From the sequence record MF158045: a stretch of DNA of 64,000 nucleotides; one strand, 5' to 3'. The notes under the pieces were generated by a model that saw nothing but the letters and a program-made list of their open reading frames with translations, was not told the origin of the DNA and made no database searches. The stretch is from Shigella phage Sf22. Positions 1-63,553 of this stretch are shown piece by piece; position 1 is the stretch's first letter, and each line of letters begins with the position of its first letter. A program made the position numbers and the translations under genes.

Positions 1-503
1 TAGACCCTTTGGTTATTTCATTTAGAATGGATTCAGAAGCTTGTAACTATCGTGCAATGCAAGACTGGGTTAACTCCGTTCAAGACCCAGTAACTGGATT
101 ACGTGCTTTGCCACAAGATGTCGAGGCAGATATTCAGGTTAATCTTCATTCTCGTAATGGATTACCTCATACTGCGGTGATGTTCACTGGATGCATTCCA
201 ATATCAGTGAGCGCTCCTGATTTATCATATGATGGAGATAACCAAATAACTACATTTGATGTTACTTTTGCGTATAGAGTCATGCAGGCTGGAGCGGTTG
301 ATAGACAAGCTGCGCTTGAATGGCTTGAATCTGCTGCTATAAATGGTATTCAAAGCGTTCTCGGAAATAGTGGAGGTGTTACTGGACTATCTAATTCGCT
401 TTCACGACTTAGTAGATTAGGAGGAACTGCAGGAAGCATTTCAAACATTAATACTATGACAGGGATTGTCAATTCGCAGAGTAAAATATTAGGAGCAATA
501 TAA
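1..503 (+). CDS. 54: Baseplate/tail-tube junction protein, C-terminal part; gene starts upstream of the window
   Basis: Open frame runs from the window edge to a stop at 503; sits immediately before alt as gene 54 does in T4; Gly/Ser-rich C-terminus. Assignment by synteny only. Confidence 0.5.
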   Translation, partial: DPLVISFRMDSEACNYRAMQDWVNSVQDPVTGLRALPQDVEADIQVNLHSRNGLPHTAVMFTGCIPISVSAPDLSYDGDNQITTFDVTFAYRVMQAGAVDRQAALEWLESAAINGIQSVLGNSGGVTGLSNSLSRLSRLGGTAGSISNINTMTGIVNSQSKILGAI

Positions 504-531
504 CAATGGGGACCTTTCGGTCCCCACATTT

Positions 532-822
532 TTATTTACGGAATGAAATGAAAGCAGCAACTGAAGCAACTAAACTGTCTTCAATATAAACTTCAATTTT
601 TACCGGAGCTTCTGACTCAAATTTACCTGTTACTACACCTTGGAAAATACTTTCAGTTTGTTCTGGCTTTGAAAAATTTTCAGAAGGAAAAATTCCGAAC
701 TTTTTATCTGTTCCAAAAATTTTAATAAATTCATCGTAAACTGCTTCATTAAAAGCATTATCAGCAGGAATAACGCCTTCAACTACAAGTTCTTGACCTA
801 AAAAGCGTAAAGAAGATTTCAT
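532..822 (-). CDS. Hypothetical protein (96 aa) downstream of alt
   Basis: ORF track; start is preceded by GAGGA and the conserved promoter-leader cassette. Confidence 0.55.
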   Translation of the reverse strand: MKSSLRFLGQELVVEGVIPADNAFNEAVYDEFIKIFGTDKKFGIFPSENFSKPEQTESIFQGVVTGKFESEAPVKIEVYIEDSLVASVAAFISFRK

Positions 823-853
823 TTTGTGTTCCTCATGTTATGTCAGTAAGACT

Positions 854-883
854 ACTATAACACAACACGAGGGACTTGTAAAC
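854..883 (-). promoter_or_regulatory. Early sigma70-type promoter (-35 GTTTAC, -10 TATAGT), copy 1 of an exactly duplicated 54-bp promoter-leader cassette
   Basis: Minus-strand reading GTTTAC-N18-TATAGT then leader ending in GAGGA; identical sequence recurs at 16152-16205. Confidence 0.5.
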
Positions 884-2940
884 TACATTTTGAACTTTTT
901 AGACATTCCGTTGATGTTAACCAAAGAAGCTAAGATTTGAGAAACTTCATTTTCCTCTTCTTTTGATTCTTCTACAAGGAATTGATTAAATCCAGCCATT
1001 GGACGAACTTCACCAGTTTCCATTAAATGGTCGCCATCATATACTGATTCTTCTAATTGTTCAGAAGGAGGAACGATTGTACCTTCGATTAGATACTTGT
1101 TATAAGCAGTTTCTTTCATAAAGTACGTGCTCACTTTATTAATCTTCAGTAAAATTCCACGTGGTAGAATAACTTCAGCTTCTGATGGAAATCCTGATAA
1201 ATGACCCGGAACGATAACTTTGATTCGCTCAGCTCCTTTAATTACCATACCCACGCTAGTTTCAGCATCTTCATTAGCATATGTAGAATGACTACCCATA
1301 TGCATCAAATCTTCTGCATCAACAGAACCTTCTCCTTCGCCAGAAAATACTGCACCGGAATCATCTAGAGCCATATAGTTTTTACCATGCTCACCGAAGA
1401 TATTTGGTTTAAGTGATGTTGATACGAAGTTCTTGAAATAGAACATTTTATTTTCAATATTATGGCGTAAAGTTTTAAAGGTAACTTCTTGTCCACGATA
1501 AAGCGTAGTTCCTGGAGGAAGAACTGAACCTTTAGCGAATGCAGAATCCATTGTCTCGATGTGTTTAATAGCTCGTTCCATGTATTCTTCACGGGTAGAA
1601 TCTGGTTTACCCAAAAGGAACGAGTTCATTTCAACATATGAATCTGCACAATAATCTTCAATTACATCAGATTCAGCTTGAGTTAATCCTTTTGGAGTTA
1701 CTTCGGTGCTTGCGTATTCATATGCCTGGGCAGCAGATTCATTAATCAATTTATAAATGCCATTCATGACAAATTGAATAATAGCTGTCTTTTCATCTGG
1801 CGTAGCTTTAGAACCTTTAACTAAATCATTAATAATTTTCTTAATAACATCAAAGCTATTAGAAATATTAATGTCAGCAAGATCGCTTAAAATTTTATCA
1901 GTTTTATAATCAAAGAATTCTTTATTCTTTAAATATTCTTGAGAACCTTGATATGTTATATCGCTCTGCAACTTGATAGATGGATCACGTAAACGTGCAT
2001 GTGCTAATGCAATATGATTTCGGAAGTTTTCTAGTTCATAATCGTTAGATTTAAAACGAGAAGCACTTCTCATACCACCGATAGCTCCTTTGCTAAAGTT
2101 TGAACCAATCTGGATAACCCCGGAGTTCATTGGTCCTTCTGCTTTATATACCGGAACTTTAGATTCAAACTCTTGATATTTCTTGGCAGCGAAGCTATCA
2201 CCCTGAAGTGAAGCATCGACAGTAGAATATTGAGCTTGTGCTGCTAATCGACGACTAATTTTAGTTTTCTGAATAACAGCTTGATCAGTGCGCTTATCAT
2301 TTTCTAAAGCAATAGAAGCAGCAACAGCGACAGCTTTAGGAACAGCATTACCTGTTTTAACGTCTACATAAACATCACCAACCTTTGATTCAACTTTTGT
2401 GAATAACTCAGTTGAAATAGGAGGTACACCTGGAATGTCTTCTAAATTGGCATTTTTACGGTAAACCATAATATATGCGTACTTTTTATCATAGTCCCAG
2501 ATTTCCTTTAAAAGAACATACCGACCTGCTCCTTTAGTACGTACTAAACGGTCAGCAATAACTTGCATTTGACGAGCTGCGCCATTTGTTTTACTCTTTA
2601 GTACGCGGAATAGGCATGCGTCGATTTTATACTGCTTCATTGTTTGAAGAGCAGTATCAAAAACAGCATTAATGACGCCAATTGGATTTCCACCCAAGTT
2701 TCTAAGCTTAACCAGCGATAATTTCTCGTTGACACCTATCATTACGATATGCATCATTTTATCGCCTGGCTTAACGTTTTTATTCGTATCACCACCAGAG
2801 GTGTATGTACAAAATCTAAATCCAGGAAGCACGCTTTCTTCGCCGGCTTGAATAGCAAAAATTTGTGGTATTTTATGCTTAGGATTTAAGTTAACAACCG
2901 GCGCCGAAGCGCCGTCAAATAATTCTGTAATAAGTTCCAT
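883..2940 (-). CDS. alt: Alt-family mono-ADP-ribosyltransferase, paralog A (685 aa)
   Basis: N-terminal MELITELFD... matches recalled T4 Alt; C-terminal domain carries R / STS / E-x-E motifs (LYRGQ, FVSTS, SEAEVILPRG). Confidence 0.85.
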   Translation of the reverse strand: MELITELFDGASAPVVNLNPKHKIPQIFAIQAGEESVLPGFRFCTYTSGGDTNKNVKPGDKMMHIVMIGVNEKLSLVKLRNLGGNPIGVINAVFDTALQTMKQYKIDACLFRVLKSKTNGAARQMQVIADRLVRTKGAGRYVLLKEIWDYDKKYAYIMVYRKNANLEDIPGVPPISTELFTKVESKVGDVYVDVKTGNAVPKAVAVAASIALENDKRTDQAVIQKTKISRRLAAQAQYSTVDASLQGDSFAAKKYQEFESKVPVYKAEGPMNSGVIQIGSNFSKGAIGGMRSASRFKSNDYELENFRNHIALAHARLRDPSIKLQSDITYQGSQEYLKNKEFFDYKTDKILSDLADINISNSFDVIKKIINDLVKGSKATPDEKTAIIQFVMNGIYKLINESAAQAYEYASTEVTPKGLTQAESDVIEDYCADSYVEMNSFLLGKPDSTREEYMERAIKHIETMDSAFAKGSVLPPGTTLYRGQEVTFKTLRHNIENKMFYFKNFVSTSLKPNIFGEHGKNYMALDDSGAVFSGEGEGSVDAEDLMHMGSHSTYANEDAETSVGMVIKGAERIKVIVPGHLSGFPSEAEVILPRGILLKINKVSTYFMKETAYNKYLIEGTIVPPSEQLEESVYDGDHLMETGEVRPMAGFNQFLVEESKEEENEVSQILASLVNINGMSKKFKM

Positions 2941-2943
2941 GAT

Positions 2944-5040
2944 TTATCCTTGAACGAACTTGTAAGGCATGTTTGTAATATCTATGCAAGACGCAATAAT
3001 TCCAAGAGATGATTCTACTTTCTGTTTAACATTTGATGAAACAAATGATGCAAAGTCAACTCTGTCTTCTATTTCAATATCACCTGTCATTGCAACTACT
3101 TCGCCAGTTTCCATTAAACGGTCACCGTCATAAATTACCGATTCGGTGAGTTCTTCGGTGGTCATAACTTCAGCTTGAATGAGTTTTGTATTATTAGACG
3201 TGGTTCCGTCATTATTAGAAGCATCAGTTATTTTATTAACTTTGACCATCAATCCGCGCGGTAGAATAACTTCGGCTTCTGTTGCTATTCCGAGACTTCC
3301 TGGATATACAACATTAACTTTATGAGCTCCATCAATTGCCCATCCTATTTGAACTTTAACGTATTCAGGATTTTCTTTATACGCTCTTATTTCGTTTGGA
3401 TTAATAGTTATTCCTTCTTCATTTTTATCAACTGTTAATTCATTGCGAGCTTCTGGTTCTAAAAGACCAATACCAGCATGTGTAATTCCAAAACGTCCAA
3501 AAATGATAGGAGTTAAAGAAGTAGATACAAAATTTCTGAAATAGAACACTTTATTTTTAACTAGTGCTTCGTATATAGGAGCAGTCATACTTTGAGCACG
3601 ATAAACTGTAATGCCTTCCGGTATACGGTCACCATTTTCAAAAGCTGAATCTAAATTATTTATAGCAGATTCAATTTCTTTTTCACTCATTATATCATAT
3701 CGTTCTGGATTGTAACGACCTAAAAGAAGATTATTGATGTCTGTATATCCTGAACCACAATACTCTCTAATGCCGCGCTTTTGTGATGGAGTATATTTAG
3801 AACCATCACGGGCAATAGTAATATCAATCATTGGACCTGCACCAATTCCGGAAAAGCTATAAATCATTCGTTTGAGGAATTTAGTTTTTGCTGCATTCCA
3901 GGCATTTTTAGTTATTTCTCCCCAGACTTCATCTGGTTGCCCTTTACGAGTTTTATTATGTTTATCAAGCCAATTATCTTTATATTCTTCAAAGAATTTA
4001 TTAACAGCTGCTGCGTATTTCTCTAAACATTTTATTGAAGTAGTTGGTTCATTTTTGATTGCGTTAAAAATTACATCTTTAATTTTTTCGGAAACTTCAT
4101 CAACCTCACTTTTTGAAAAGAATTTATAGTCATAGTGAAGTTCATTCGCAGTTCCTTCGGCAATAATTTTTGCTGCCTTAGTTTTAGAAGCTAATGAATT
4201 AATTCCAAGCTTCATTTCTTCTGCTTCGGGAATTAAAGGAGCGGTAGCAGGTTTATTGAAATTAGCTGCGGTAGATTCATACTTCTGGAATAATTCACTT
4301 TCAAATCTAGAAGACTCTAACGATTGACTTTGTGCAATTGCTCTACGGGAAATTTTAACTTTAACGATTACAGCTTGGTCAGAACGTTTATCGTTTTCTT
4401 GTGCAATAGATGCTGCAATTGCCTCATTTTTAGTTACTTGAGCCCCAGTATCTTTATTGATATAAACATCACCGACCTTCGATTCAACTTTAGTAAAGAG
4501 CTCGGTACTAATTTCCGGAACTCCTGGAATGTCTTCTAGTGATACATTTTTGCGATGTATAAGAATATATGCATACTTTTTATCATAATCCCAGAGTTCC
4601 TTAAGAAGGACGTATCTGCCACCTGAACGACTACGGATAAGTCTATCAGCAATAACTTGAATTTGTCGAGCTTGACCAGCGGTTTTAGACTTAAGAATAC
4701 GGAGCATACAGGCATCAATTTTATACTGACGCATTGTTTGCATTGCAACAGTAAAAACTGAATTGATATAATTAATTGGGCTTGGACCAAGACCTTTTAA
4801 TTTAGCAATTGAACCTTTAGCAGTTAATGTAAAAGGAACAATATGCATCATTTTATCGCCCATCTTTAAATCGCGATTAGTATCACCTCCAGATGTATAG
4901 GTACATAAACGAAAGCCTGGCTGTTCAATTGCATCATCAACGTGAACTGAAAAAATTTGCGGTATTTTCTTCTTTGGATTTAAGTTTGTAATCGGAAGAG
5001 TAGTATCTTCGTCAAATAATTCTGTAATAAGTTCCATCAT
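2944..5040 (-). CDS. alt: Alt-family mono-ADP-ribosyltransferase, paralog B (698 aa)
   Basis: First ~230 aa closely similar to paralog A; central region diverged; catalytic motifs retained (VYRAQ, FVSTS, TEAEVILPRG). Which copy is the T4 alt orthologue cannot be decided without alignment. Confidence 0.85.
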   Translation of the reverse strand: MMELITELFDEDTTLPITNLNPKKKIPQIFSVHVDDAIEQPGFRLCTYTSGGDTNRDLKMGDKMMHIVPFTLTAKGSIAKLKGLGPSPINYINSVFTVAMQTMRQYKIDACMLRILKSKTAGQARQIQVIADRLIRSRSGGRYVLLKELWDYDKKYAYILIHRKNVSLEDIPGVPEISTELFTKVESKVGDVYINKDTGAQVTKNEAIAASIAQENDKRSDQAVIVKVKISRRAIAQSQSLESSRFESELFQKYESTAANFNKPATAPLIPEAEEMKLGINSLASKTKAAKIIAEGTANELHYDYKFFSKSEVDEVSEKIKDVIFNAIKNEPTTSIKCLEKYAAAVNKFFEEYKDNWLDKHNKTRKGQPDEVWGEITKNAWNAAKTKFLKRMIYSFSGIGAGPMIDITIARDGSKYTPSQKRGIREYCGSGYTDINNLLLGRYNPERYDIMSEKEIESAINNLDSAFENGDRIPEGITVYRAQSMTAPIYEALVKNKVFYFRNFVSTSLTPIIFGRFGITHAGIGLLEPEARNELTVDKNEEGITINPNEIRAYKENPEYVKVQIGWAIDGAHKVNVVYPGSLGIATEAEVILPRGLMVKVNKITDASNNDGTTSNNTKLIQAEVMTTEELTESVIYDGDRLMETGEVVAMTGDIEIEDRVDFASFVSSNVKQKVESSLGIIASCIDITNMPYKFVQG

Positions 5041-5061
5041 AGCCTCTCTAGTGTTTATTCT

Positions 5062-5069
5062 ATTTATAA
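5062..5069 (-). promoter_or_regulatory. Candidate late promoter (TATAAATA) upstream of the alt pair
   Basis: Exact TATAAATA on minus strand ~25 nt upstream of the paralog B start; Alt is a virion-packaged protein. Confidence 0.45.
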
Positions 5070-5073
5070 AATT

Positions 5074-5091
5074 AAAGGCCCGAAGGCCTTT
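5074..5091 (-). terminator. Stem-loop AAAGGCC-CGAA-GGCCTTT with adjacent T-rich tract
   Basis: Perfect 7-bp stem, 4-nt loop; same hairpin sequence recurs at 52626-52643. Confidence 0.45.
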
Positions 5092-5278
5092 AGTAATCTA
5101 GTGGTAAGAGAGTACGATATATTTCAAACTTTGGTCCTTTTTCATAGGCATCAAATGTTTCTGTAAATTTATTATAAGCGTATGCATCTACAAATTCGAG
5201 AATGACTTGTGATACAGAAGTAGAAACATCTCCACCTTCTTTTTGAGCAATGACAATTGTTTCTAAGTAAGCTTTCAT
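5090..5278 (-). CDS. Hypothetical protein (62 aa)
   Basis: ORF track; start overlaps the ligase stop. Confidence 0.5.
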   Translation of the reverse strand: MKAYLETIVIAQKEGGDVSTSVSQVILEFVDAYAYNKFTETFDAYEKGPKFEIYRTLLPLDY

Positions 5279-6738
5279 AGACCAGTTACCTCATGAAAAT
5301 CACCAAATACATCCTCGAATGTATTAGCTTTAGTTTTATCTTCACGTAAACGAATCGCAATCGGAAGAAATAATTTAACGTAATCAGTGCGGCCATCAGA
5401 TTTTAACCAACCGTTGCATTCGCACTCTAGAATTTTTCCAATATAATAATTTTGGTTTTCCATAATGCGAGTACGGTCAAGCTCATGTGATTTTACGCCG
5501 GCTTTATCTTTTAAGCCTGAACCAGCATTTACTTTAATTTTTCCACATTCTGATTCAAGAATAAATCCACCCGCTTTAGTAGGGTCTTTACGGTGAGGAT
5601 AAATTCCTACAATTTTTAAATCAACATCAATTACTTCTTTAAATTTATAAAGATTTTTTGAACGAGCATTTTCCCATAATCCATCGATATTTTTGAGAAT
5701 AATACCTTCAAGACCTTGGTCAATATACTTTTTGTAAATTACCTTAGCTTCATCTAGGTTATTTACTACCTGGTTTTCAATTAAAATTACTTTATCATAG
5801 CCTGATGTCATTTGTTCTAGTTTAGAAAAACGTACATCATACTTTAAACGAAATGCAGGAAGACCATATATTTCTACTAATGGAACATAGTCCCAGACCT
5901 GAAACTTCATGCATTGTGCTTCTTTTTCGGAAATGGTTCCCTTTAAAGATTTATTAGCGATTCCATTAGAAGCAGTACGTGATTCAGCTACTTCGGCGAA
6001 TTCTTTAGCTTTACTAATTTCAGGATAAGCATCAAAAAGAAAATCTAGGCCTTCTGGTTCCTTTTTAACTTGCTCATGGTATACCAATTCGCCATCAATT
6101 AACACACCTTCTGGATGAATCTGGCGGGCTTCAGCGGTCATTTTGATTAACTCTTCCTTGAGAAGATCTAATCCTAGATATTCATTACCAGCTCGTGATA
6201 AAAGACGAACATCATCTAATTCATCACCTCTGACTTCAGCAAAGCACCGAGCTCCATCAGCTTTTAATTGGGCAAAGGCTGGAAATTTGATATTCTTATT
6301 AATGCCTTTTTCATCATAAGAACTTGCCAGCATTTGAGGTTGTTCAGGAATTAAACCTGGCCAAACTTTGTTTGCAATAGATACTGATGCACCACATTCA
6401 AGGTCTCGCATCATCACCCGACGCAAAACTTCAACATCATCTTTTTTACCGTCAGCAATATATCCAGTTAATTCCTCAATTGCCGCATTTCCGGTCAATT
6501 TCCGAGTAGCTAACGTTAATTCAATGAAGTCAAGCATATCGGTAAGAGTCAACATTCCAAAACTCTGGGTAGCAATACCAGGTTTAGGCCATTTCTTGAT
6601 ATAATACTGTAACCCACGAGAATAAGTCAGACGATATACTCGTTTAAGCAATTCATTATCTTTATTCTTTTCAAGAATTGCTTGCTTCTGCTTAGTTGAA
6701 CCAATAGATGCTATTTCGTTCAGAATTTTAAGAATCAT
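5275..6738 (-). CDS. 30: ATP-dependent DNA ligase
   Basis: 487 aa, MILKILNEIASIGSTKQKQAILEKNKDNELLKRVYRLTY... matches recalled T4 DNA ligase throughout. Confidence 0.97.
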   Translation of the reverse strand: MILKILNEIASIGSTKQKQAILEKNKDNELLKRVYRLTYSRGLQYYIKKWPKPGIATQSFGMLTLTDMLDFIELTLATRKLTGNAAIEELTGYIADGKKDDVEVLRRVMMRDLECGASVSIANKVWPGLIPEQPQMLASSYDEKGINKNIKFPAFAQLKADGARCFAEVRGDELDDVRLLSRAGNEYLGLDLLKEELIKMTAEARQIHPEGVLIDGELVYHEQVKKEPEGLDFLFDAYPEISKAKEFAEVAESRTASNGIANKSLKGTISEKEAQCMKFQVWDYVPLVEIYGLPAFRLKYDVRFSKLEQMTSGYDKVILIENQVVNNLDEAKVIYKKYIDQGLEGIILKNIDGLWENARSKNLYKFKEVIDVDLKIVGIYPHRKDPTKAGGFILESECGKIKVNAGSGLKDKAGVKSHELDRTRIMENQNYYIGKILECECNGWLKSDGRTDYVKLFLPIAIRLREDKTKANTFEDVFGDFHEVTGL

Positions 6739-7004
6739 TGTTCATCCTTTAGAGTTTGGTTTACAGCTCTATTATAAATCAATTCATCATTAAGCTCAGT
6801 CAAAGACCTGTGGTACGTGGTTCTAACTTTATTTCCTTGCATCCAGTGCTTGACGTAAATGAAACCTTGCTCTACACATTTTTTAAAAATTCGTTCGTCT
6901 TTTTGAGCTCGAAATTCTGGATTGCATCTAAAAAATTGATTTACGTGACCGTAATCACGTGTAGTATTACCTTCATTTTCATAAATAGTGTGAACGACAA
7001 ACAT
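6735..7004 (-). CDS. Hypothetical protein (89 aa), 30.1 position
   Basis: ORF track; synteny. Confidence 0.55.
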   Translation of the reverse strand: MFVVHTIYENEGNTTRDYGHVNQFFRCNPEFRAQKDERIFKKCVEQGFIYVKHWMQGNKVRTTYHRSLTELNDELIYNRAVNQTLKDEQ

Positions 7005-7840
7005 TAGAATGCTCCTTGGAAAATATTATCACCACCAGTAGGTCTATTATACAAATACTCTATGCCACCAGGTTTAATATAGTTCCATGTCTGAAAAGGA
7101 TGCGTCTGATATGGATGATATAGATTATAAGGATTAAATCCAGGAGTTCTCCAGGTAGTGTTCCAAGGAAAAGAATCGTTTTTAATCATCTTCTCAATTA
7201 CATCTTTTATAACTTTTTCACTATCAAAACTTTCTTTATTTTCCTTCGATGGAAAAAGTTTATTCTCTACATCATTCCATGTATAAACTCGCTGCGCAGT
7301 TTTTGGAATATTGTCACGCTCCCCTCGAGCCATCCAATAAACAGGAACATTTAATAATTCACTTGCATGATCGCAGTGGTGAGCGAGATCGTCAATATAA
7401 CAAATTACGTTATATTTCTCTTTTGCCTTTTTGAACAACTCTTCTTTTGAAGAATCATGACTACACATCAGTACTTCTGAGAAGGCACCAGGAAAAAGAG
7501 CATTCAAATTAAATTGACGATTCAACAGAGCGTCAATAGAATCACCCAGTGCTGTAACAGCAACAAAATTATAATCTTCTTTTAATTTGTTAATTACACA
7601 CAGAGCATCTTTATATGGAGACAAGTAACGAATAAAATCCGAACGATTGTATTTTTCAATTAGCTTAACGCCAAGATCTTCATCACAGTTAAAGAGTTTA
7701 CCTGGAGAAATAAATTTTTCGTCCTGAATCATTTTTAAAATATGTTCTAACGGAAGATTATATTTCTGAGCAAAATAAGGAAGACCTGATTGCCAGCTTA
7801 AACATACACCATCAATATCAGTCAAAATAGTAGGCTTCAT
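7004..7840 (-). CDS. HAD-superfamily hydrolase-like protein (278 aa), 30.2 position
   Basis: N-terminal LTDIDGVCL resembles HAD motif I (DxDG[VT]). Confidence 0.6.
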   Translation of the reverse strand: MKPTILTDIDGVCLSWQSGLPYFAQKYNLPLEHILKMIQDEKFISPGKLFNCDEDLGVKLIEKYNRSDFIRYLSPYKDALCVINKLKEDYNFVAVTALGDSIDALLNRQFNLNALFPGAFSEVLMCSHDSSKEELFKKAKEKYNVICYIDDLAHHCDHASELLNVPVYWMARGERDNIPKTAQRVYTWNDVENKLFPSKENKESFDSEKVIKDVIEKMIKNDSFPWNTTWRTPGFNPYNLYHPYQTHPFQTWNYIKPGGIEYLYNRPTGGDNIFQGAF

Positions 7841-8301
7841 AGAGAGTCTCTTAGTAGGTTTAACACATCAATAAATTCAGCTTCGGTTAGTATTGTATCA
7901 TCTTTTGTTAGACCACTAGCCATGCTGTGCTTCAAAACTTTTCCTTTTGAGGCTTGTAAGGCATCACGAAAGCCCTTGTTTTGGATCGCTGCTTCAAAAT
8001 ATGCATTTGTATACAACTCTTTCCACGCTGGAGAGTATCTTGAAAATGGAACTCCAAGCCAGAAGAGGGTCCCACGGTCCTGAGCTCTAGCATAAGACCT
8101 TCCAGCTTGTTGGGCGGCAAGCCCGGATAACCCAAATACACGACGTTGTTGTTCAACATTTTTCACCTTGCATCCTTGGAGGAATCCTTCAAGACCTCCA
8201 AATTGAATACCATCCATGACGAAAGGCCATTGGGCGAAATTACTTAATGCACATGATGGCCACCTAAAATTGCTTCTAATCTCTAACTCAGACATTTTCA
8301 A
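7837..8301 (-). CDS. NADAR/YbiA-like (DUF1768) protein (154 aa), 30.3 position
   Basis: LSNFAQWPFVMDGIQFGGLEGFLQGCK resembles the NADAR signature. Confidence 0.55.
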   Translation of the reverse strand: MKMSELEIRSNFRWPSCALSNFAQWPFVMDGIQFGGLEGFLQGCKVKNVEQQRRVFGLSGLAAQQAGRSYARAQDRGTLFWLGVPFSRYSPAWKELYTNAYFEAAIQNKGFRDALQASKGKVLKHSMASGLTKDDTILTEAEFIDVLNLLRDSL

Positions 8302-8494
8302 TGCTTATAATTTCAACATCAGCCCAATGACCATAGCAAGGAAGACGAAATTCAACTGGCCAGTTAGGGTCCTTTTCTAATATAATAGACTCAACTTGTG
8401 GTTCTTCATGTTCATCAGTATATGGATTTTTATCTGTTACTTTATATGTGACCTTAATGTACTGAATTCCAAAAATCTTATTAATTATATTCAT
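8288..8494 (-). CDS. Hypothetical protein (68 aa)
   Basis: ORF track. Confidence 0.45.
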   Translation of the reverse strand: MNIINKIFGIQYIKVTYKVTDKNPYTDEHEEPQVESIILEKDPNWPVEFRLPCYGHWADVEIISIENV

Positions 8495-8688
8495 ACTAAT
8501 TCCTTTAATCCGTAAATAGGAGATAATTCATCACCCATGCGAAGGTCTTCATTTCCATCTACCCAGGAAACAATATAAGCCTCTTTTATTTGAATACCAC
8601 TCCATTTAAATGGAGGTAGAACCTTAGAAATTAATCCAGGTATACCAACTCCCTTTAATTCAACAGTTTGACCTAAAAAGAATTTCAT
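8491..8688 (-). CDS. Hypothetical protein (65 aa)
   Basis: ORF track; start overlaps upstream stop. Confidence 0.45.
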   Translation of the reverse strand: MKFFLGQTVELKGVGIPGLISKVLPPFKWSGIQIKEAYIVSWVDGNEDLRMGDELSPIYGLKELV

Positions 8689-8975
8689 TAGAACCTCATC
8701 TGAAAACCGTGCGATTTAACATTACCGCCGCCAATATCAGAAATGTTAATTTCACGCGCAATTGAAGGGTCAATGTCAATTTCACGATTGAGTTTAGTGA
8801 TAGCTAAAGTATCGCGCCCATTTACAGTACGAAACTCTAAAGGACAAACCACATCAACATAGTTTTTAATCGATTCGCTAGTAGGTTGCAAATGTGCAGG
8901 AAGGTCTTTAGGCGCCTTTGAGAAAACTACTTCGCAGAAGTTTTTACGGGTATCAAAATAAGTGGTCATAAACAT
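8688..8975 (-). CDS. Hypothetical protein (95 aa)
   Basis: ORF track; GAGG RBS. Confidence 0.5.
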   Translation of the reverse strand: MFMTTYFDTRKNFCEVVFSKAPKDLPAHLQPTSESIKNYVDVVCPLEFRTVNGRDTLAITKLNREIDIDPSIAREINISDIGGGNVKSHGFQMRF

Positions 8976-9015
8976 AATAATTCCTCAGTAAGGGGCTGAA
9001 GCCCCTCATTTTATT

Positions 9016-9381
9016 TTAAATATCAAATTCGTTAAGAACTACATCAAAGATTGCTTCCAAGTGCTCAGGTTTAGCTTTGTTACTCAGAATATGACGAATC
9101 CAAGTTTTAACCAAAAGCTTGCGATTAACGCCATTCCAGCAAGGATGAGCCCCTAAATCGCGTTGACGGAAATCATCATCCAGAGCGATTTTAAAGTTGG
9201 AACCTTCCATTGTGATTGAAACCGTGATACCGTTTTCAAATCGCATATAAACGTAATTAGGAGTCATATACTGTTCAATTTCGCATACTGAACCATTTTG
9301 ATGTTTCCAGAGGCAAATAGTATCAATAGAACCTGCAATACCATTAGAAACATATTTACGTTCAAAGTTAATGTAGTTCAT
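9016..9381 (-). CDS. Hypothetical protein (121 aa; start moved to MNYINF)
   Basis: Conserved leader TTGGAGAATAAAATG; the track start is a TTG inside the RBS. Confidence 0.5.
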   Translation of the reverse strand: MNYINFERKYVSNGIAGSIDTICLWKHQNGSVCEIEQYMTPNYVYMRFENGITVSITMEGSNFKIALDDDFRQRDLGAHPCWNGVNRKLLVKTWIRHILSNKAKPEHLEAIFDVVLNEFDI

Positions 9382-9406
9382 TTTATTCTCCAAGATGTTT
9401 AATTGC

Positions 9407-9446
9407 GGTACAGGTATATAATATCATATCCTGTACCAAAGTAAAC
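9407..9446 (-). promoter_or_regulatory. Early promoter (GTTTAC -35) with 8-bp inverted repeat GGTACAGG/CCTGTACC bracketing the -10
   Basis: GTTTAC-N17-TATTAT on minus strand; arms at about 9407-9414 and 9430-9437. Confidence 0.45.
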
Positions 9447-9448
9447 AA

Positions 9449-9781
9449 TTATTTTACTACTTTCCAGTGCTTCATGTCAAGTTTACCAACTTTTTTCATC
9501 TTCTCAATTAAGCGTTCGGCACGTTGGCGAGCTGTAACATAATACCATTCACCTAATTCATTTTGTTCAATTTTTCCAACGATTACTGTATTCAATTCAT
9601 AAATCCAACCAGTAAAGAAATTATGAACTTGAATTGTAAAGGTGAAATCTGTTCCCATACCTTCTGTTGTTTCTACTTCAATAATATCACCTTCAACTGC
9701 CATTAAGAACCACATAGTTTCATCATATTTACCATTGAAGCATTTAGTTTTAACTGCAGCGTTCAGATTAATCGTTTTCAT
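9449..9781 (-). CDS. Hypothetical protein (110 aa)
   Basis: ORF track; AGGAGAATAAAATG RBS. Confidence 0.5.
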   Translation of the reverse strand: MKTINLNAAVKTKCFNGKYDETMWFLMAVEGDIIEVETTEGMGTDFTFTIQVHNFFTGWIYELNTVIVGKIEQNELGEWYYVTARQRAERLIEKMKKVGKLDMKHWKVVK

Positions 9782-9865
9782 TTTATTCTCCTTTGTTTGT
9801 GTAAGATAATACTATCACAAAGGAGCTATACTGTAAACAACTTTATGCAATCTTTGGAAAATAAA

Positions 9866-9890
9866 AAAGGACTCCCGAAGGAGTCCTCAA
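9866..9890 (-). terminator. Rho-independent terminator (GGACTCC-CGAA-GGAGTCC + T-run)
   Basis: Perfect 7-bp stem followed by TTTTTTATTTT on minus strand; identical hairpin recurs after soc. Confidence 0.6.
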
Positions 9891-9891
9891 C

Positions 9892-10068
9892 TTATGCTTT
9901 CTGCTTACCAAAACGAGAAGCATCATCTCGAAGAACCGCACGTGCTCGGCGCATGATCTTCTCAACAGTTTGATTGATACGAGAGTTCGACCCACGCTTG
10001 TAACCAGCGCGTTTAGAATCACCAACTTTCTTTTCAACTGCTTTCTTTGCTTTAACTTGTTTTGCCAT
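9892..10068 (-). CDS. Small basic protein (58 aa; start at MAKQVKAKK)
   Basis: Lys/Arg-rich ORF with AAAGAG RBS; the track's N-terminal extension lacks an RBS. Confidence 0.5.
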   Translation of the reverse strand: MAKQVKAKKAVEKKVGDSKRAGYKRGSNSRINQTVEKIMRRARAVLRDDASRFGKQKA

Positions 10069-10356
10069 TAAAAATTCTCTTTTAAACGAAAATGCAGGAC
10101 TTATTGGCATTGCCTGCGAAAGCCCTCAAAGGGGTACTTAGGTTTTGAATATTTACCGACAGGATAACCATAAACCCGTCATCATACCACCAAGACTTAC
10201 ACAGATAACACTTTTCTGACGCATGATAGTAACATTCAAGAGGTACACCGTAAAACTGCCGGGGTCTTAAAACTATAATGATTCGCAAATCATTAATCAG
10301 ACAGTTCGACGGCTCCTCGATTTTAGCTCACACTAAGGCAGTGAATCTCCAATAAA

Positions 10357-10605
10357 TTACTTCAGTGTTACCACAAAGTGACGAACTGCTTTTCGTGCAG
10401 CAGAAGCCAGAGGCTTAGCATATTTAAGTTCATCTTTTTCCTGAAGCTCAGCAGCTAATGCAGTTTGAGCAGGATTCAGATGTTTGAAATAACGCAGGAT
10501 TTCAAGAGCTTCGGCTTCAACATCAATAGATGCGCCATAGTTTTCGTGACCATTATTCCATGCGTTTCGTTGCAGTTCAAGAGCGTGTTGTAATTGTTTA
10601 ATCAT
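10357..10605 (-). CDS. rIII: rIII lysis-inhibition accessory protein
   Basis: 82 aa, MIKQLQHALELQRNAWNNGHENYG... matches recalled T4 rIII; synteny. Confidence 0.9.
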   Translation of the reverse strand: MIKQLQHALELQRNAWNNGHENYGASIDVEAEALEILRYFKHLNPAQTALAAELQEKDELKYAKPLASAARKAVRHFVVTLK

Positions 10606-10744
10606 TTAAAAATTCTCGTTAGAGATTAAAACTCGGTAGTCACGTTCTTCTGAATTTCATCTTCTTTCGACAGATCTCTCAGTTGTAGACTACCACATAG
10701 AATTGTTCGGTTAACTTATTATTCCGACACCCAATTCATATTAT

Positions 10745-10752
10745 TATTTATA
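10745..10752 (-). promoter_or_regulatory. Candidate late promoter (TATAAATA) in the 31-rIII intergenic region
   Basis: Exact TATAAATA on minus strand ~140 nt upstream of the rIII start. Confidence 0.3.
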
Positions 10753-11088
10753 TCACTTATAAAGACACGGAATAGCTTTATAATGACAGGTAACGAATTT
10801 TTGTTTAATTTCTTTTGGCTGCTTAAGACCCAGAGCTACAAAAGGATGCGGAACATTTCGAATTTGACCAACTGGAAGAGAAGTCAAATCACCAACTTCG
10901 CAGAAACCTTCAGGAACATCAGGACCGACAGAGTGAACTACACACAGTTCAGGAACTTCACCTTGAACACGTTTACCGATGATAAGTCCTGATTCTGTAA
11001 CTTCTTCATCACCGGCTTGTGCAGGTTCAGAAACTAAAATAACATATTCACCGACAGCACGAATTGGTAGCTGTTGTACTTCAGACAT
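10753..11088 (-). CDS. 31: Co-chaperonin (GroES analogue)
   Basis: 111 aa, [22 protein letters not shown]... matches recalled T4 gp31. Confidence 0.93.
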
Positions 11089-11144
11089 CGTTTTTCCTTT
11101 TTGTTAACAGATGAATTAATAATAACAAATAATTCTTAAAGCAT

Positions 11145-11453
11145 TTATTTACCAATAAATTGGAGTAAATGCTCAACTTTCATACCATTAACAGAAATCA
11201 ATTTGTCAATAGAAAAACCTCGCCATGCACCAAGCTCAACATCAAATACTGGAATCATGTCAGTAGATTCTTTCCGAGTAGATTCAGTCAATTTACCAGT
11301 TTGCATGGTTGGCATAAAGTCTGCATCACGAGTACCTTTCATAGTACGAATAGTACCATCAGACTTTTCAAAAACTACGTTTGAAACACCCATGGACAAT
11401 TTAGTTTTCAAAATTTCACGAATTGCTACTTTCTGCTCAGTTGTCAGTTTCAT
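11145..11453 (-). CDS. Hypothetical protein (102 aa)
   Basis: ORF track; synteny (31.1 position). Confidence 0.5.
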   Translation of the reverse strand: MKLTTEQKVAIREILKTKLSMGVSNVVFEKSDGTIRTMKGTRDADFMPTMQTGKLTESTRKESTDMIPVFDVELGAWRGFSIDKLISVNGMKVEHLLQFIGK

Positions 11454-11690
11454 TTATTTACCTATTACAGTTTTAATATGAGTTGTTCCACGTTCTTTAA
11501 GGGTGGAAAGTAATTTTTGGCATTTTTCTAAATCAGATTTCCAACTATATGGTCTATCAATACTAGTCCAATCAGTTTTATAATACTGTTTCCATTTAGA
11601 GAAAAAATATTTCTTATACTCTACAGCAAATGAGATGTTCTCATTAGAATAAGAACTAATTGCTGTGAGCTTTACCAAACGAAATTTCAT
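11454..11690 (-). CDS. Hypothetical protein (78 aa)
   Basis: ORF track; synteny (31.2 position). Confidence 0.5.
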   Translation of the reverse strand: MKFRLVKLTAISSYSNENISFAVEYKKYFFSKWKQYYKTDWTSIDRPYSWKSDLEKCQKLLSTLKERGTTHIKTVIGK

Positions 11691-12271
11691 TATTCACCAC
11701 AGAATTCGTTGATATTTTCCCAGTTTAACTTATTCAAGTTTTTCTTAGGAACATTAAACACTTCAATACCTGCATTTCGCAGAATATCATCCCAACCAGG
11801 TTTATTTTTATCGTATGTTTCACAATAAACTAGCTTTTTAATACCAGATTGAGCTATCGCTTTTGCGCAATCCGGACAAGGAGAAAGTGTTACATACATA
11901 GTAGCACCTTCAATAGAAGAACCATTTCGTGCAGCAAACAAAATTGCATTTAGTTCAGCATGAATTTCATTTTTAGATGACCATTCCGAGTGAGCACTAC
12001 GATGTTCTTTCGCCAAGACAAAACGATCAGTTGAACCAAACGATACACATTCAGGCTTATGACCTTGAATGATAGTATGTTTAGGTTTATTCAACAACCA
12101 ACCTTGCTCAGCAGCATAATCACAGCAGTTCACACCACCAGCAGGTGAACCATTATATCCGGTAGAAATAATACGTCCATTCTTTTCAATTACTGCTCCT
12201 ACTTTCCAGGAGCAACATTTTGATTCTTGTGATACTAAATATGCAATTTGAAGTACTGTACTCGCTTTCAT
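11690..12271 (-). CDS. cd: dCMP deaminase
   Basis: 193 aa; cytidine/deoxycytidylate deaminase zinc motifs (HAELNA, PCPDC); matches recalled T4 Cd. Confidence 0.93.
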   Translation of the reverse strand: MKASTVLQIAYLVSQESKCCSWKVGAVIEKNGRIISTGYNGSPAGGVNCCDYAAEQGWLLNKPKHTIIQGHKPECVSFGSTDRFVLAKEHRSAHSEWSSKNEIHAELNAILFAARNGSSIEGATMYVTLSPCPDCAKAIAQSGIKKLVYCETYDKNKPGWDDILRNAGIEVFNVPKKNLNKLNWENINEFCGE

Positions 12272-12606
12272 TTCATAATCACCAGATAAGCAGATTTAGC
12301 AGTTTCAACACGATAAATTTCGTGACGAAGTTTAGTTATACTTTTAATAACAGAACTAATTATATTCTGCCCATCTTTAAAGCGGTTTTTCTTATCAATA
12401 AAAATTGCACCAGCCATCTTTTTGTGAAGCTCAACTGGATACTTCGTCACAATAATAGCATCATACACAGAAGGATGAATACTATTCACTAGAGTGTCAT
12501 TCATTAAAGTTATTCTAATGAACTGTGCTGTGTCAGAGTCAAGCGCTCTATGATCGCCAGTATCATTTTCAAGACAATTATCAATTATATCAGTTAAATT
12601 CATCAT
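12268..12606 (-). CDS. Hypothetical protein (112 aa)
   Basis: ORF track. Confidence 0.5.
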   Translation of the reverse strand: MMNLTDIIDNCLENDTGDHRALDSDTAQFIRITLMNDTLVNSIHPSVYDAIIVTKYPVELHKKMAGAIFIDKKNRFKDGQNIISSVIKSITKLRHEIYRVETAKSAYLVIMK

Positions 12607-12839
12607 AGTACGCCATACACCCTTTGTGCTTCAACTAATCCATCAAAATCCAATTTGAGATGTGTTATTTGGTCACCATCACCTGGATTCACAATTACTA
12701 ATACTGAACGAGGAGTTTCGGTAATAACACGAACCGATGTTTCAGGAAATCGTTCAGAAACCTTATTTACCAATTCCTGTGCAAATAGCTTAACTTTTTC
12801 TTGGAATTCTTTAACAGTAATTGGTTTTTCACTTAGCAT
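12603..12839 (-). CDS. Hypothetical protein (78 aa)
   Basis: ORF track. Confidence 0.5.
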   Translation of the reverse strand: MLSEKPITVKEFQEKVKLFAQELVNKVSERFPETSVRVITETPRSVLVIVNPGDGDQITHLKLDFDGLVEAQRVYGVL

Positions 12840-12901
12840 TTTGTTTTCCTCATTTGTTTTGGTAGAGCTATAATATCACAACTCTACCAAAAAGTAAACT
12901 A

Positions 12902-13177
12902 TTAAATTGCCTTGAATTCTGATGTCTGTGATTCAAAGCGAATATCGCCTTTGATGACTAGCTCAGCATCAAGACCAAATACGACAATGATATGCGCGGA
13001 ACCCGGATACAGCGTAATTGCAATAGAATCCACCTGGTCTGGAAGCAAAGTGTTCAATACATGAGTCACTTGAGCATGAATTCGAAGCTCGGCTGCATTA
13101 TCAAGCTTTTCAAACATATTATTAGCAATAATTTGGCTAAACACTACTTCTACGATTTTAGAATAAGTTGGAAACAT
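12902..13177 (-). CDS. Hypothetical protein (91 aa)
   Basis: ORF track. Confidence 0.5.
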   Translation of the reverse strand: MFPTYSKIVEVVFSQIIANNMFEKLDNAAELRIHAQVTHVLNTLLPDQVDSIAITLYPGSAHIIVVFGLDAELVIKGDIRFESQTSEFKAI

Positions 13178-13179
13178 AT

Positions 13180-13372
13180 TTACCTCACATAATTTTCTTC
13201 AAGCCAATTAATAACATCCAACGCATTATCAAAAGTTGAACCATCTACTCTGTCTTCTGTTTCATAATCAAGAACATCTAAGCCTACTCTTCCATCAACA
13301 ATAGGCCATAAACAAAATAGATATTTCTTTTCTTTTTCAATTTTATCACAAAGACGATAAATCTTTTCTATG

Positions 13373-13380
<8 letters not shown>
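13180..13380 (-). CDS. Hypothetical protein (66 aa)
   Basis: ORF track. Confidence 0.45.
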
Positions 13381-14773
<1,393 letters not shown>

Positions 14774-14777
<4 letters not shown>

Positions 14778-15010
14778 TTATTTTTCTCAACCAATGATTG
14801 AATATAATCATGCAGGTCTTTAGATGCTTTACCCCACTTATTTTGGTATTCATTTTTAAGATTAGCACGTGATTGAGCTAATAAAACATCATTAGTTGGA
14901 GGTAAAGATTCTAATCGTTGAATCTGGCGTCCATAAATCATTGCAGCCATCTCGGATTCATAAATCAATCCTTTGAGATGTTCAAATTGATGCCATGAAA
15001 TCATTTGCAT
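14774..15010 (-). CDS. Hypothetical protein (78 aa)
   Basis: ORF track. Confidence 0.5.
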
Positions 15011-15300
15011 TTATCCTCTTTTAACTCTTGGCGATAATAACATATCATAGTTTTCTGATCATGTACATATCGTTTTACATCATTAAGCCAAATACGAAAT
15101 TCCTGGGAATCTTCGAATGGCATACCGACCCAAGCTTTACCATCAATAACTTTAACTTGCCAAGATAGTTTGGCTTCGTCATATGACTTTATTTGCACAG
15201 GCCAATTAGGATGAACTGTTTCTTTCTTTACTTCTAGAGGCTTTGTAGAACAACCAACTAGAAGACCAATAGATAATATTACTGCTGATAGTTTAATCAT
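15001..15300 (-). CDS. pseT.2: Outer-membrane spanin (lipoprotein, 99 aa)
   Basis: Signal peptide with lipobox LLVGCS; directly downstream of and overlapping the inner-spanin candidate. Confidence 0.6.
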   Translation of the reverse strand: MIKLSAVILSIGLLVGCSTKPLEVKKETVHPNWPVQIKSYDEAKLSWQVKVIDGKAWVGMPFEDSQEFRIWLNDVKRYVHDQKTMICYYRQELKEDKCK

Positions 15301-15650
15301 TTAGAAAGGTCCTGGATGTCTTCTGCGAACTTGTTGAAGGAGTTGTTGATTTGTTTTTCAACCAATCCTGGCTTATGAGCCACCACATCCGCCTTCTTTG
15401 CGTCTTTGCGCAGTTTTTCATTTTCACGCTCAATAGCAGCAATCGCCTCACGATTTTTATTATTCATCGCATCAATATAATTATACTGAATTCGCAAATT
15501 ATTTAATGCTAAGGCGTTTTCATTGGCCGTTTTTGTAATTTCTACAACAGACGTTTCTAATCTTTCAATTTTATTTTTTAAAATTAAAGAAGTTCCGCCT
15601 AATGCAATTACAATTAATAGCAAACCTGCTGTCGTATTACTTAATTGCAT
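15297..15650 (-). CDS. pseT.3: Inner-membrane spanin (117 aa)
   Basis: N-terminal transmembrane helix followed by charged coiled-coil-like region; T4 spanins occupy this position. Confidence 0.6.
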   Translation of the reverse strand: MQLSNTTAGLLLIVIALGGTSLILKNKIERLETSVVEITKTANENALALNNLRIQYNYIDAMNNKNREAIAAIERENEKLRKDAKKADVVAHKPGLVEKQINNSFNKFAEDIQDLSK

Positions 15651-16147
15651 AAAGTTTTAATAACCTCTATAATATCGTCTTGAGAAAGACCGTTAATTAA
15701 AATATGATGTTCAGCTGGAGATTTAGAAATTTTAAAGCATGCCTCAACATCTTCTGCCATATCCGATGCACTACGATTTGGATTACTAATACCAAGGCGG
15801 TGTTTTCCCGTCAAAGGATTAACGATGATATAGCATTTGCAGCTATTGATATGAACATTGGGTTGAGTCTGATTAATGAACACTTCACAATCATACTTAG
15901 CGAGTTGATTTTCTAAAAAGACTTTCATCTCTTCAACCGCATCAGGAAGCATATCACGGGCTTGCTCAAGACGACGATTTCGATATTCTTTAATGGTCGT
16001 TTTCCGCTTGACTTGCTTAGCTAAATCTTTCTTAAGATCGGTGATATATCCAACTCGACGATTTCCTTTGAATACAGAAATCCCATCTGTAGTATCACCG
16101 TATGCTTCAACGACCATTTCAGTAGTAATAAGTTGTAAATCCATCAT
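15641..16147 (-). CDS. alc: Alc, inhibitor of host transcription on cytosine-containing DNA
   Basis: 168 aa, MMDLQLITTEMVVEAYGDTTDG... matches recalled T4 Alc; synteny. Confidence 0.9.
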   Translation of the reverse strand: MMDLQLITTEMVVEAYGDTTDGISVFKGNRRVGYITDLKKDLAKQVKRKTTIKEYRNRRLEQARDMLPDAVEEMKVFLENQLAKYDCEVFINQTQPNVHINSCKCYIIVNPLTGKHRLGISNPNRSASDMAEDVEACFKISKSPAEHHILINGLSQDDIIEVIKTLCN

Positions 16148-16175
16148 AAAGTCCTCATGTTATGTCAGTAAGACT

Positions 16176-16205
16176 ACTATAACACAACACGAGGGACTTG
16201 TAAAC
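16176..16205 (-). promoter_or_regulatory. Early promoter, copy 2 of the duplicated 54-bp promoter-leader cassette
   Basis: Sequence identical to 830-883; GTTTAC-N18-TATAGT, leader and GAGGA immediately upstream of the alc ATG. Confidence 0.5.
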
Positions 16206-16208
16206 AGC

Positions 16209-17796
<1,588 letters not shown>

Positions 17797-52576: not shown

Positions 52577-52625
52577 TTATCCTCGTTTGGTTTCGGGAAT
52601 ATTATACTCCGGTAATCATAAAGCT

Positions 52626-52643
52626 AAAGGCCCGAAGGCCTTT
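52626..52643 (-). terminator. Stem-loop AAAGGCC-CGAA-GGCCTTT
   Basis: Same hairpin as 5074-5091; lies between the lipoprotein ORF stop and the gene 39 start. Confidence 0.4.
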
Positions 52644-55495: not shown

Positions 55496-56038
55496 TTAAT
55501 CTAAGGTAATAAAGCCTTTTAATTCGGCATGGGATTTACGGAACATTACTTGGTGCCCGCCAATGATAACTTGATCATCTGGAACTTCGTATACAGCGAG
55601 ATAAAATCCTTTAGAAGATAATTCTTCACGCTCTTCTCGTGTGAACCATCTCATCATATCATATTCGCTAGCGAAAGCAAAATGATAAAGAGCTATAAAC
55701 CATCCTGGAATATAGTGATCTACGCCTACATATTCTTCTTTCTCAAAATTAGTATTAATTGCTATATTAGCATTTTTAACTAATAATTTGTCTTCGTGTG
55801 GAAGAGGAATTCTTTTATTATCATTACTATGATGCATAAAATTAGGTCTGTCATAACCTACGTGTAATAACCACTCTTCGCTCCATGAATCTATTATACT
55901 CCTGTATGGCGTTATTTGAACACAAAGATCTCGACGTATTGTTATAGCATCTTCATAATTAAGAATACTAAACGATGATTCAACACGATAAATTTTCATT
56001 TTATTATCCTCAGTAGCTATGGTGTTATAATACCACAA
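55496..56038 (-). CDS. Hypothetical protein (180 aa)
   Basis: ORF track. Confidence 0.5.
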   Translation of the reverse strand: MWYYNTIATEDNKMKIYRVESSFSILNYEDAITIRRDLCVQITPYRSIIDSWSEEWLLHVGYDRPNFMHHSNDNKRIPLPHEDKLLVKNANIAINTNFEKEEYVGVDHYIPGWFIALYHFAFASEYDMMRWFTREEREELSSKGFYLAVYEVPDDQVIIGGHQVMFRKSHAELKGFITLD

Positions 56039-56062
56039 CTAACCGAGGAAGTAAACAACTTT

Positions 56063-63455: not shown

Positions 63456-63520
63456 AGTGCTCTCCTCTATAAGATAATTCTATTATACCATACTCATTTT
63501 GATATGTAAACCATTTAAAT

Positions 63521-63544
63521 GAAAAAGGACTCCCGAAGGAGTCC
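63521..63544 (-). terminator. Rho-independent terminator after soc (GGACTCC-CGAA-GGAGTCC + T-run)
   Basis: Identical hairpin to 9866-9890. Confidence 0.6.
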
Positions 63545-63553
63545 TTAAATTAT

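Follow-up and report, generated by a model that had tools for sequence, protein, structure and literature searches.

An early promoter at alc and alt.-3 of a T4-like phage lies within a predicted hairpin that may confine translation to promoter-initiated RNA

Why does a T4-like phage (Tequatrovirus) carry the same 54 nucleotides, letter for letter, ahead of two genes that lie 15 kb apart? The question is raised by a 64,000-nt stretch of Shigella phage Sf22 (record MF158045), here called the window, which is 96.5-98.4% identical over 20 kb to the best 30 of many Escherichia, Shigella and Yersinia phages. The 54-mer TCCTCATGTTATGTCAGTAAGACTACTATAACACAACACGAGGGACTTGTAAAC has two exact plus-strand matches there, at 830-883 and 16152-16205, with zero mismatches, as the original prediction had stated, and a repeat finder independently yields it as family D10 with a spacing of 15,322. 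Scanning the 64,000-nt window for a third place gave none at three or fewer mismatches (chance expectation 0). The bases adjoining 830-883 and 16152-16205 diverge at once on both sides, so the identity is exactly 54 nt. All of the genes concerned are on the minus strand, on which the cassette reads GTTTACAAGTCCCTCGTGTTGTGTTATAGTAGTCTTACTGACATAACATGAGGA and each copy, lying behind a stop codon, takes up nearly all of an intergenic gap of ~61 nt. The other early promoters of the window have a mutual identity of just 62-78% (family D2), which makes a 54/54 match an outlier, and in a scan of the window for GTTTAC-type promoters the alc/alt.-3 pair was the sole identical module at two genes.

The first copy (the alt.-3 copy, 830-883) comprises an early promoter, a leader and a Shine-Dalgarno (SD) sequence, and lies between the stop codon of an Alt paralog (TAG, 885-883) and the ATG of alt.-3 at 822. 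Its first base is the G of that TAG, and it ends 7 nt ahead of the ATG. The -35 hexamer TTTACA is at 877-882 (GTTTAC at 878-883, its G being the last base of the upstream TAG), the -10 hexamer TATAGT is at 854-859, and the predicted +1 is near 847, at A37 of the cassette. The gene served by this copy is a 96-aa homologue of alt.-3 (532-822; phrog_1739, 1.3e-44), with T4 alt.-3 in the same position. On its 3' side there is a terminator-like hairpin at 506-527 with a 9-bp stem and 6 GC pairs, listed on both strands, which is the probable end of the alt.-3 transcription unit. Upstream are the paralog, a full-length, alt.-2-like protein of 685 aa (883-2940; phrog_802, 4.9e-256), and alt (2944-5040). 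The late-promoter motif TATAAATA is found a short way upstream of alt (5061-5068, minus strand). In the SA20RB record this motif carries a late-promoter annotation, and the one here is a likely source of late read-through RNA reaching the first copy. The two tandem full-length Alt ADP-ribosyltransferase paralogs are ~71-80% identical in stretches (families D1, D3, D5, D9 and D14); in T4, the second is reduced to the remnants alt.-1 and alt.-2.

The second copy (the alc copy, 16152-16205) starts 3 nt past the stop codon (TAA, 16211-16209) of rnlA, which encodes RNA ligase 1 / tail-fibre attachment (16209-17369; phrog_562, 4.9e-157), and it precedes alc, the inhibitor of host transcription (15641-16147; phrog_1253, 1.7e-82). 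It ends 4 nt before the first alc ATG and 7 nt before the second. The second ATG (16144) is the start annotated in T4 and gives an SD-to-ATG distance of 7 nt, as in alt.-3. The promoter consensus scan placed TTTACA at 16199-16204 and TATAGT at 16176-16181, with a predicted +1 near 16169. The minus-strand equivalents of the two predicted +1 positions in T4 (NC_000866) are ~123,057 for 847 and ~136,300 for 16169.

Both copies have TTTACA-N17-TATAGT (equivalently GTTTAC-N18-TATAGT) with TG before the -10, scoring 10/12 in the consensus scan, and at both the -35, a spacer of 17±1, a TAnnnT -10 and the TG of a T4-type sigma-70 early promoter are present. A promoter-leader module of this form, with a leader ending in GAGGA, had been proposed ahead of alt.-3 and alc and is seen at both. 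The T4 early-promoter consensus (a GTTTAC -35 and an extended -10) is given in the SA20RB annotation, which attributes it to Miller et al. 2003. The cassette resembles T4 early promoters in its GTTTAC, its 17-18 nt spacing, its TG-extended TAnnnT and its place directly ahead of T4-early genes. It differs in the 100% identity of this pair over 54 nt, and in the pairing of spacer with SD, which is absent from most of the window's other early promoters. The sequence upstream of the -35 is AAAAAGTTCAAAATGTA in the alt.-3 copy and CCCAGAAGGATACTAAGCT, which is not A-rich, in the alc copy, both within coding sequence. Time-course omics of T4 class alc and alt.-3 as early RNA and early protein (PMC9697503 supplement), alt as late in RNA and protein, and rnlA as early RNA and late protein (PMC9697503). 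These classes agree with an early promoter at each cassette, and with expression of Alc that does not merely track rnlA.

The original prediction took identity to run through a spacer and a leader, a reading that is incomplete, as the two are the arms of an 18-bp RNA hairpin enclosing the Shine-Dalgarno sequence. Folded as sense RNA, the cassette gives this hairpin, interrupted by a single 2-nt bulge, at -22 kcal/mol (z = -5.39), a stability reached by 0/200 shuffles. The loop is formed by cassette positions 32-35, just upstream of the predicted +1, and the apex is the -10/+1 region. In the first copy, the 5' arm (853-872, cassette positions 12-31) is the promoter spacer and -10, the -10 hexamer lying at the bulge and apical stem, and the 3' arm (831-848, positions 36-53) is the leader, including the GAGG of the SD GAGGA (830-834). 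In the second copy, the arms are at 16175-16194 and 16153-16170, the latter including the GAGG of the SD at 16152-16156, and the stem continues outward to 16149, AAGTCC pairing with GGACTT. These six extra pairs beyond the repeat bring the alc copy to -27.3 kcal/mol in an 81-nt context (z = -4.21). The GAGG is wholly paired in the predicted fold, with a P(SD paired) of 0.8-1.0. Leaders folded alone from the predicted +1 are essentially unstructured, at -2.7 kcal/mol for the first copy (z = -0.05) and -4.1 kcal/mol for the second (z likewise ~0). Since the 5' arm is the promoter spacer and -10, transcripts begun at the cassette's own promoter lack it. Three stem pairs are G.U, possible on the sense RNA only, which points to RNA, not DNA, as the level of action. 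When only the spacers were shuffled, SD pairing was still found in 8/300 trials for the alc copy and 81/300 for the alt.-3 copy; this control has little discriminating power, since a pyrimidine-rich spacer will often still pair with GAGG once shuffled. Rfam 15 covariance models gave no match at either copy (E <= 1, span 500-16600).

We consider it probable that a T4-type sigma-70 early promoter is nested in an SD-sequestering hairpin, that translation is confined to early RNA initiated at that promoter, and that the module was copied from alc to alt.-3. RNA starting near A37 would contain the 3' arm alone; with no 5' arm its ribosome site would be open, and alc or alt.-3 would be translated immediately upon infection. 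Read-through RNA from upstream would contain both arms, with the ribosome site locked in an 18-22-bp helix, and the downstream gene would then be translated poorly or not at all from such messages. Candidate read-through RNAs are late alt/Alt-paralog transcripts and long nrd-denA-rnlA transcripts, whose existence and amount are presumed here. The terminator scan found no terminator-like sites between the upstream genes and the cassettes at either copy. If the gate works in this way, the gene's own immediate-early promoter would keep control of alc even under heavy read-through from the upstream genes.

Hairpins with an internal promoter that sequester a ribosome-binding site have been described in T4 for e, soc, 49, I-TevI/II/III and segB, and for mobE of Aeh1, the internal promoter being late in all of them (PMC3014915, PMC2988022). 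As in those hairpins, the helix here encloses the SD on long transcripts, and RNA from the internal promoter is without the 5' arm and predicted to be translatable. Unlike them, the internal promoter here is an early sigma-70 promoter, with no TATAAATA in the cassette. Whereas the e/soc/49 gates delay translation to late times, this one would confine it to immediate-early, promoter-proximal RNA. The cassette thus appears, on its modelled structure, to be an early-promoter member of the T4 promoter-in-hairpin class already known. Neither alc nor alt.-3 is among the hairpin examples given in the two reviews (PMC3014915, PMC2988022), and we found no published description of a hairpin at either gene, although an earlier one is possible.

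A strong stem that begins right after stop codons could also be mainly a 3'-end element of the upstream genes, such as a terminator, an attenuator or a 3'-stabiliser, that overlaps the next promoter. Terminator-promoter overlaps are common in T4 early regions, and in the SA20RB record (OL960581.1, L028 1214-1263) the hairpin of the alt.-3 copy is labelled a rho-independent terminator by WebGeSTer, along with other overlaps of terminators and early promoters. However, no U-tract follows the stem, which continues into GAGGAACACAAAAUG or GAGGACUUUAUG, and in other genera the bases there are A-rich; nor would a pure 3'-end element need its 3' arm to be the downstream SD in 10 genera. We therefore regard this explanation as unlikely. 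An intrinsic terminator in particular was rejected, as the tails ACACAAAAUG and CUUUAUGAUG contain no U-run and neither copy is in the list of terminator-like sites, and the label in OL960581.1 is probably a mis-annotation.

Another use for such a stem would be translational coupling: on read-through RNA the SD would become accessible only as a ribosome completes the upstream ORF next to the stem. From the upstream stop codon it is 0-3 nt to the -35 and 8-14 nt to the first paired base, and every genus examined has this close spacing, with gaps of 58-64 nt. The pairing partners of GAGG, however, start 11-14 nt past the stop codon, a distance that, judging from ribosome footprints, is at or past the limit of what a terminating ribosome covers. 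The late RnlA protein and early Alc protein of T4 also argue against tight coupling, and we doubt that coupling is what the hairpin mediates. Within the sequestration model, a ribosome terminating 0-3 nt upstream could still partly open the base of the stem, so that translation would be coupled rather than blocked. Involvement of RegB was rejected in this phage, in which GAGGA contains no GGAG; several other genera have GGAGA as the SD, and there RegB could take part.

Is the hairpin kept where the sequence is not? Homologues of alc were found in 1,135 phage records, and the rnlA-alc gap was compared from eleven other genera. The gap is usually 58-64 nt and always opens with GTTTAC directly behind the rnlA stop; Roskildevirus Cronus, with 72 nt, and Gaprivervirus VR25, with an extra ORF, are exceptions. 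That extra ORF (stretch L010, 75-180) has its own SD enclosed in a hairpin (GGTTCCATCA...TGATGAGGACC), with a terminator-like stem upstream. Spacers complementary to the SD-containing leader precede alc, with differing sequences, in Karam-, Gelderland-, Jiaoda-, Moon-, Roskilde-, Braga-, Dhaka-, Kanagawa- and Winklervirus, so that, Tequatrovirus included, 10/12 genera have the design. Examples of 5' and 3' arms from alc leaders of other genera are TCTCCATTTGGTT with AACCAAATGGAGA, TCCTCATCAG with CTGATGAGGA, and AACCTCTCATTTT with AAAATGAGAGGTT.

Plain MAFFT alignment of the alc leaders across genera left the 3' arms out of register, and so an alignment-free permutation test was used instead, in which the duplex energy of every genus's spacer with every genus's leader was calculated for the 12 genera. 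The own leader was the best partner of the spacer in 10/12 genera (counting a tie between Karam- and Moonvirus). The own-pair energies sum to -214 kcal/mol, compared with a permuted mean of -134 (sd 13), and 0/100,000 permutations reached this value. The ensemble P(SD paired to spacer) at alc is 0.75-1.0 in ten genera and 0 in Mosigvirus and Gualtarvirus. Across genera, the structure appears to have been kept by compensatory change; within the genus this signal is weak. A scan of IMG/VR with Alc returned only 6 loci, all Tequatrovirus, and was of no use for the comparison.

Mosigvirus has no hairpin at alc and Gualtarvirus has a different one, so the alc hairpin is dispensable in some lineages. 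The Mosigvirus alc leader (L013, L017) still matches the Tequatrovirus 5' arm at -20.6 kcal/mol, its own spacer being of the alt.-3 type, and the two Mosigvirus promoters have GTTTACAAACAC and TATCAACAACAYGAGGA in common. Its hairpin seems to have been lost, possibly by conversion in the opposite direction.

Covariation between genera also bears on whether the inverted repeat acts at the level of DNA, as an operator or cruciform that regulates the promoter, with the RNA fold incidental. In favour of this, the palindrome is centred on the -10/+1 region. Yet the three G.U pairs, together with the variants C15U, C42U and G16A, keep pairing in the sense RNA only and are mismatches in DNA or antisense RNA, and arms that differ wholly between genera while retaining complementarity are ill-suited to a sequence-specific protein site. 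A DNA-level role is very improbable.

The direction of copying can be read from the other locus. Homologues of alt.-3 occur in 835 records. In Karam-, Gelderland-, Jiaoda-, Mosig-, Dhaka-, Kanagawa- and Kagamiyamavirus, the alt/alt.-3 gap is 57-63 nt with an early promoter straight after the stop codon, but this is an ordinary promoter unlike the cassette, typically GTTTACAACACCACA(A/T)GGATGTGGTACTAT, and its SD pairs to the spacer with P ~0 in six of these genera and 0.42 in Dhakavirus. With the design at alc in 10/12 genera and not at alt.-3 of the seven others, it is ancestral at alc, and the alc cassette appears to have overwritten the alt.-3 promoter in the Tequatrovirus ancestor. That the alt.-3 copy came from a copy event, as originally proposed, agrees with the unrelated promoters at alt.-3 in the seven other genera. 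The ends of the 54-nt identity coincide with motifs of the ancestral alt.-3 promoter, seen in Dhakavirus as ...ATGTAGTTTACAA... and ...ACATGAGGA..., and identity that ends at motifs already common to both sites is the pattern that homology-primed gene conversion would leave. Ectopic gene conversion, with GTTTACA(A) and (A)ACATGAGGA as primers, is the probable route by which the ordinary alt.-3 promoter was replaced, a mechanism we infer from these boundaries. The gene that received the cassette, alt.-3, is non-essential. C-terminal extension mutants of alt.-3 escape the CmdTAC defence system (PMC11618068).

A mini-hairpin of 5-6 bp, CCAC(A)-NGGA-(T)GTGG, occurs inside the -35/-10 spacer at 50756 and 46497 of the window (minus strand) and in the alt.-3 promoters of several genera, the differences from genus to genus being compensatory.

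How old is the duplication? The original prediction saw recent copy-and-paste in the exact identity, and the distribution of the cassette does not bear this out. The cassette occupies 995 places in 498 phage records, among them T4, which amounts to two in nearly every record, and in the seven genomes in which both copies were compared (one copy per locus in each) they are 0-6 nt apart. The copies do not differ in the window phage or in PP01, differ by 1 nt in T4, and are 4-6 nt apart in T6, GBLB0003, P8 and SA20RB. In T4, the alc copy is exact and the alt.-3 copy differs by G40A alone, a change from a U.G to a U-A pair. Exact identity in the window is a lineage state rather than a sign of fresh duplication.

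The variants in the seven genomes also indicate how the copies have evolved since. PP01 has G29A+G32A at both loci and P8 has the same two at alt.-3 only; T27C and G16A are also found at both loci. The same variants at both loci in different genomes suggest occasional exchange, not strict homogenisation. Concerted evolution by ectopic gene conversion offers a parallel, both in the linked variants at both loci of PP01 and in identity that ends at shared consensus motifs, but homogenisation here is incomplete, with the 4-6 differences in T6, GBLB0003, P8 and SA20RB, in a sample of 7 genomes. The copies may have been kept similar by purifying selection with occasional further conversion. Most stem changes are compatible with pairing, namely G16A, C15U, C42U, G40A and the double compensatory change C15U + G50A (in the alt.-3 copy of GBLB0003). 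Four others, G16U, U19A, G40U and G29A, each disrupt a pair, and G29A also makes a perfect TATAAT. Within Tequatrovirus, co-variation was not significant, with 97.7% of cells paired and 73/500 shuffles reaching the observed score in a small sample with little variation.

Two direct repeats are formally a substrate for deleting or amplifying the 15 kb between them, and to that extent the original prediction stands. Queries were built for the deletion junction (alt.-3 side, cassette, rnlA side) and for the duplication junction (alc side, cassette, Alt-paralog side) with 150-nt flanks. None of the 498 records covers at least 80% of either query; all stop at 58%. The interval carries gene 30 (DNA ligase) and gene 31, among others. 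Both genes are essential in T4, so a deletion between the copies would be inviable, and the risk of rearrangement from the repeat is theoretical. A recent neutral duplication, important only as such a substrate, would account for the exact 54/54 identity and the direct orientation. It is scarcely credible, however, given 995 places in 498 records, copies up to 6 nt apart, 0/498 records with a recombinant junction, and the presence of genes 30 and 31 in the interval.

Sequestration of the SD by a promoter spacer may extend beyond this pair. Scanning the window for GTTTAC-type promoters found at least three further early promoters, unrelated in sequence, whose spacer pairs with the downstream SD. 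On the minus strand, their -35 elements are at 56056, 45981 and 9838, with duplex energies of -23.1, -18.0 and -13.8 kcal/mol and downstream ORFs starting near 55999, 45923 and 9781, respectively. At four others (-35 at 12899, 24624, 9446 and 55048, minus strand), a hairpin over the spacer and first transcribed bases leaves the SD uncovered, and many promoters have neither feature. The design is, on sequence evidence, recurrent among the early promoters of the window, though not universal. More tentatively, and with somewhat less confidence than we place in the gate at alc and alt.-3, the cassette can be seen as a conserved, portable T4-like module that licenses translation from its own early promoter only, was kept at alc in at least 10 genera, was transplanted as a 54-nt unit onto alt.-3 and continues to be exchanged; the promoters at 56056, 45981 and 9838 may belong to it. 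If true, the logic of the lysozyme, soc and I-TevI hairpins would be widened from late to early promoters, with a natural example of a whole promoter, leader and ribosome-binding-site module moved onto another gene. The practical value would be modest, consisting of better annotation and a compact natural part for promoter-specific translation.

Other repeats and structures were observed in the window. Near-identical terminator-like hairpins, AAAGGCCCGAAGGCCTTT and GGACTCCCGAAGGAGTCC, occur at 5061-5091, 52613-52643, 9859-9895 and 63517-63553 (families D11 and D19). The region 9853-9936 (minus strand), which overlaps the terminator hairpin beside the promoter at 9838, has a weak match (31.4 bits, E = 0.006) to the Rfam model of the Rhizobiales sRNA Atu_C8, whose gathering score is 50; the match is most likely due to chance. 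Within a long plus-strand ORF region, 30365-31290 contains internal direct repeats of ~33-68 nt spaced at multiples of 108-120 nt (families D4, D6 and D8), and their position suggests that they are in a tail-fibre gene.
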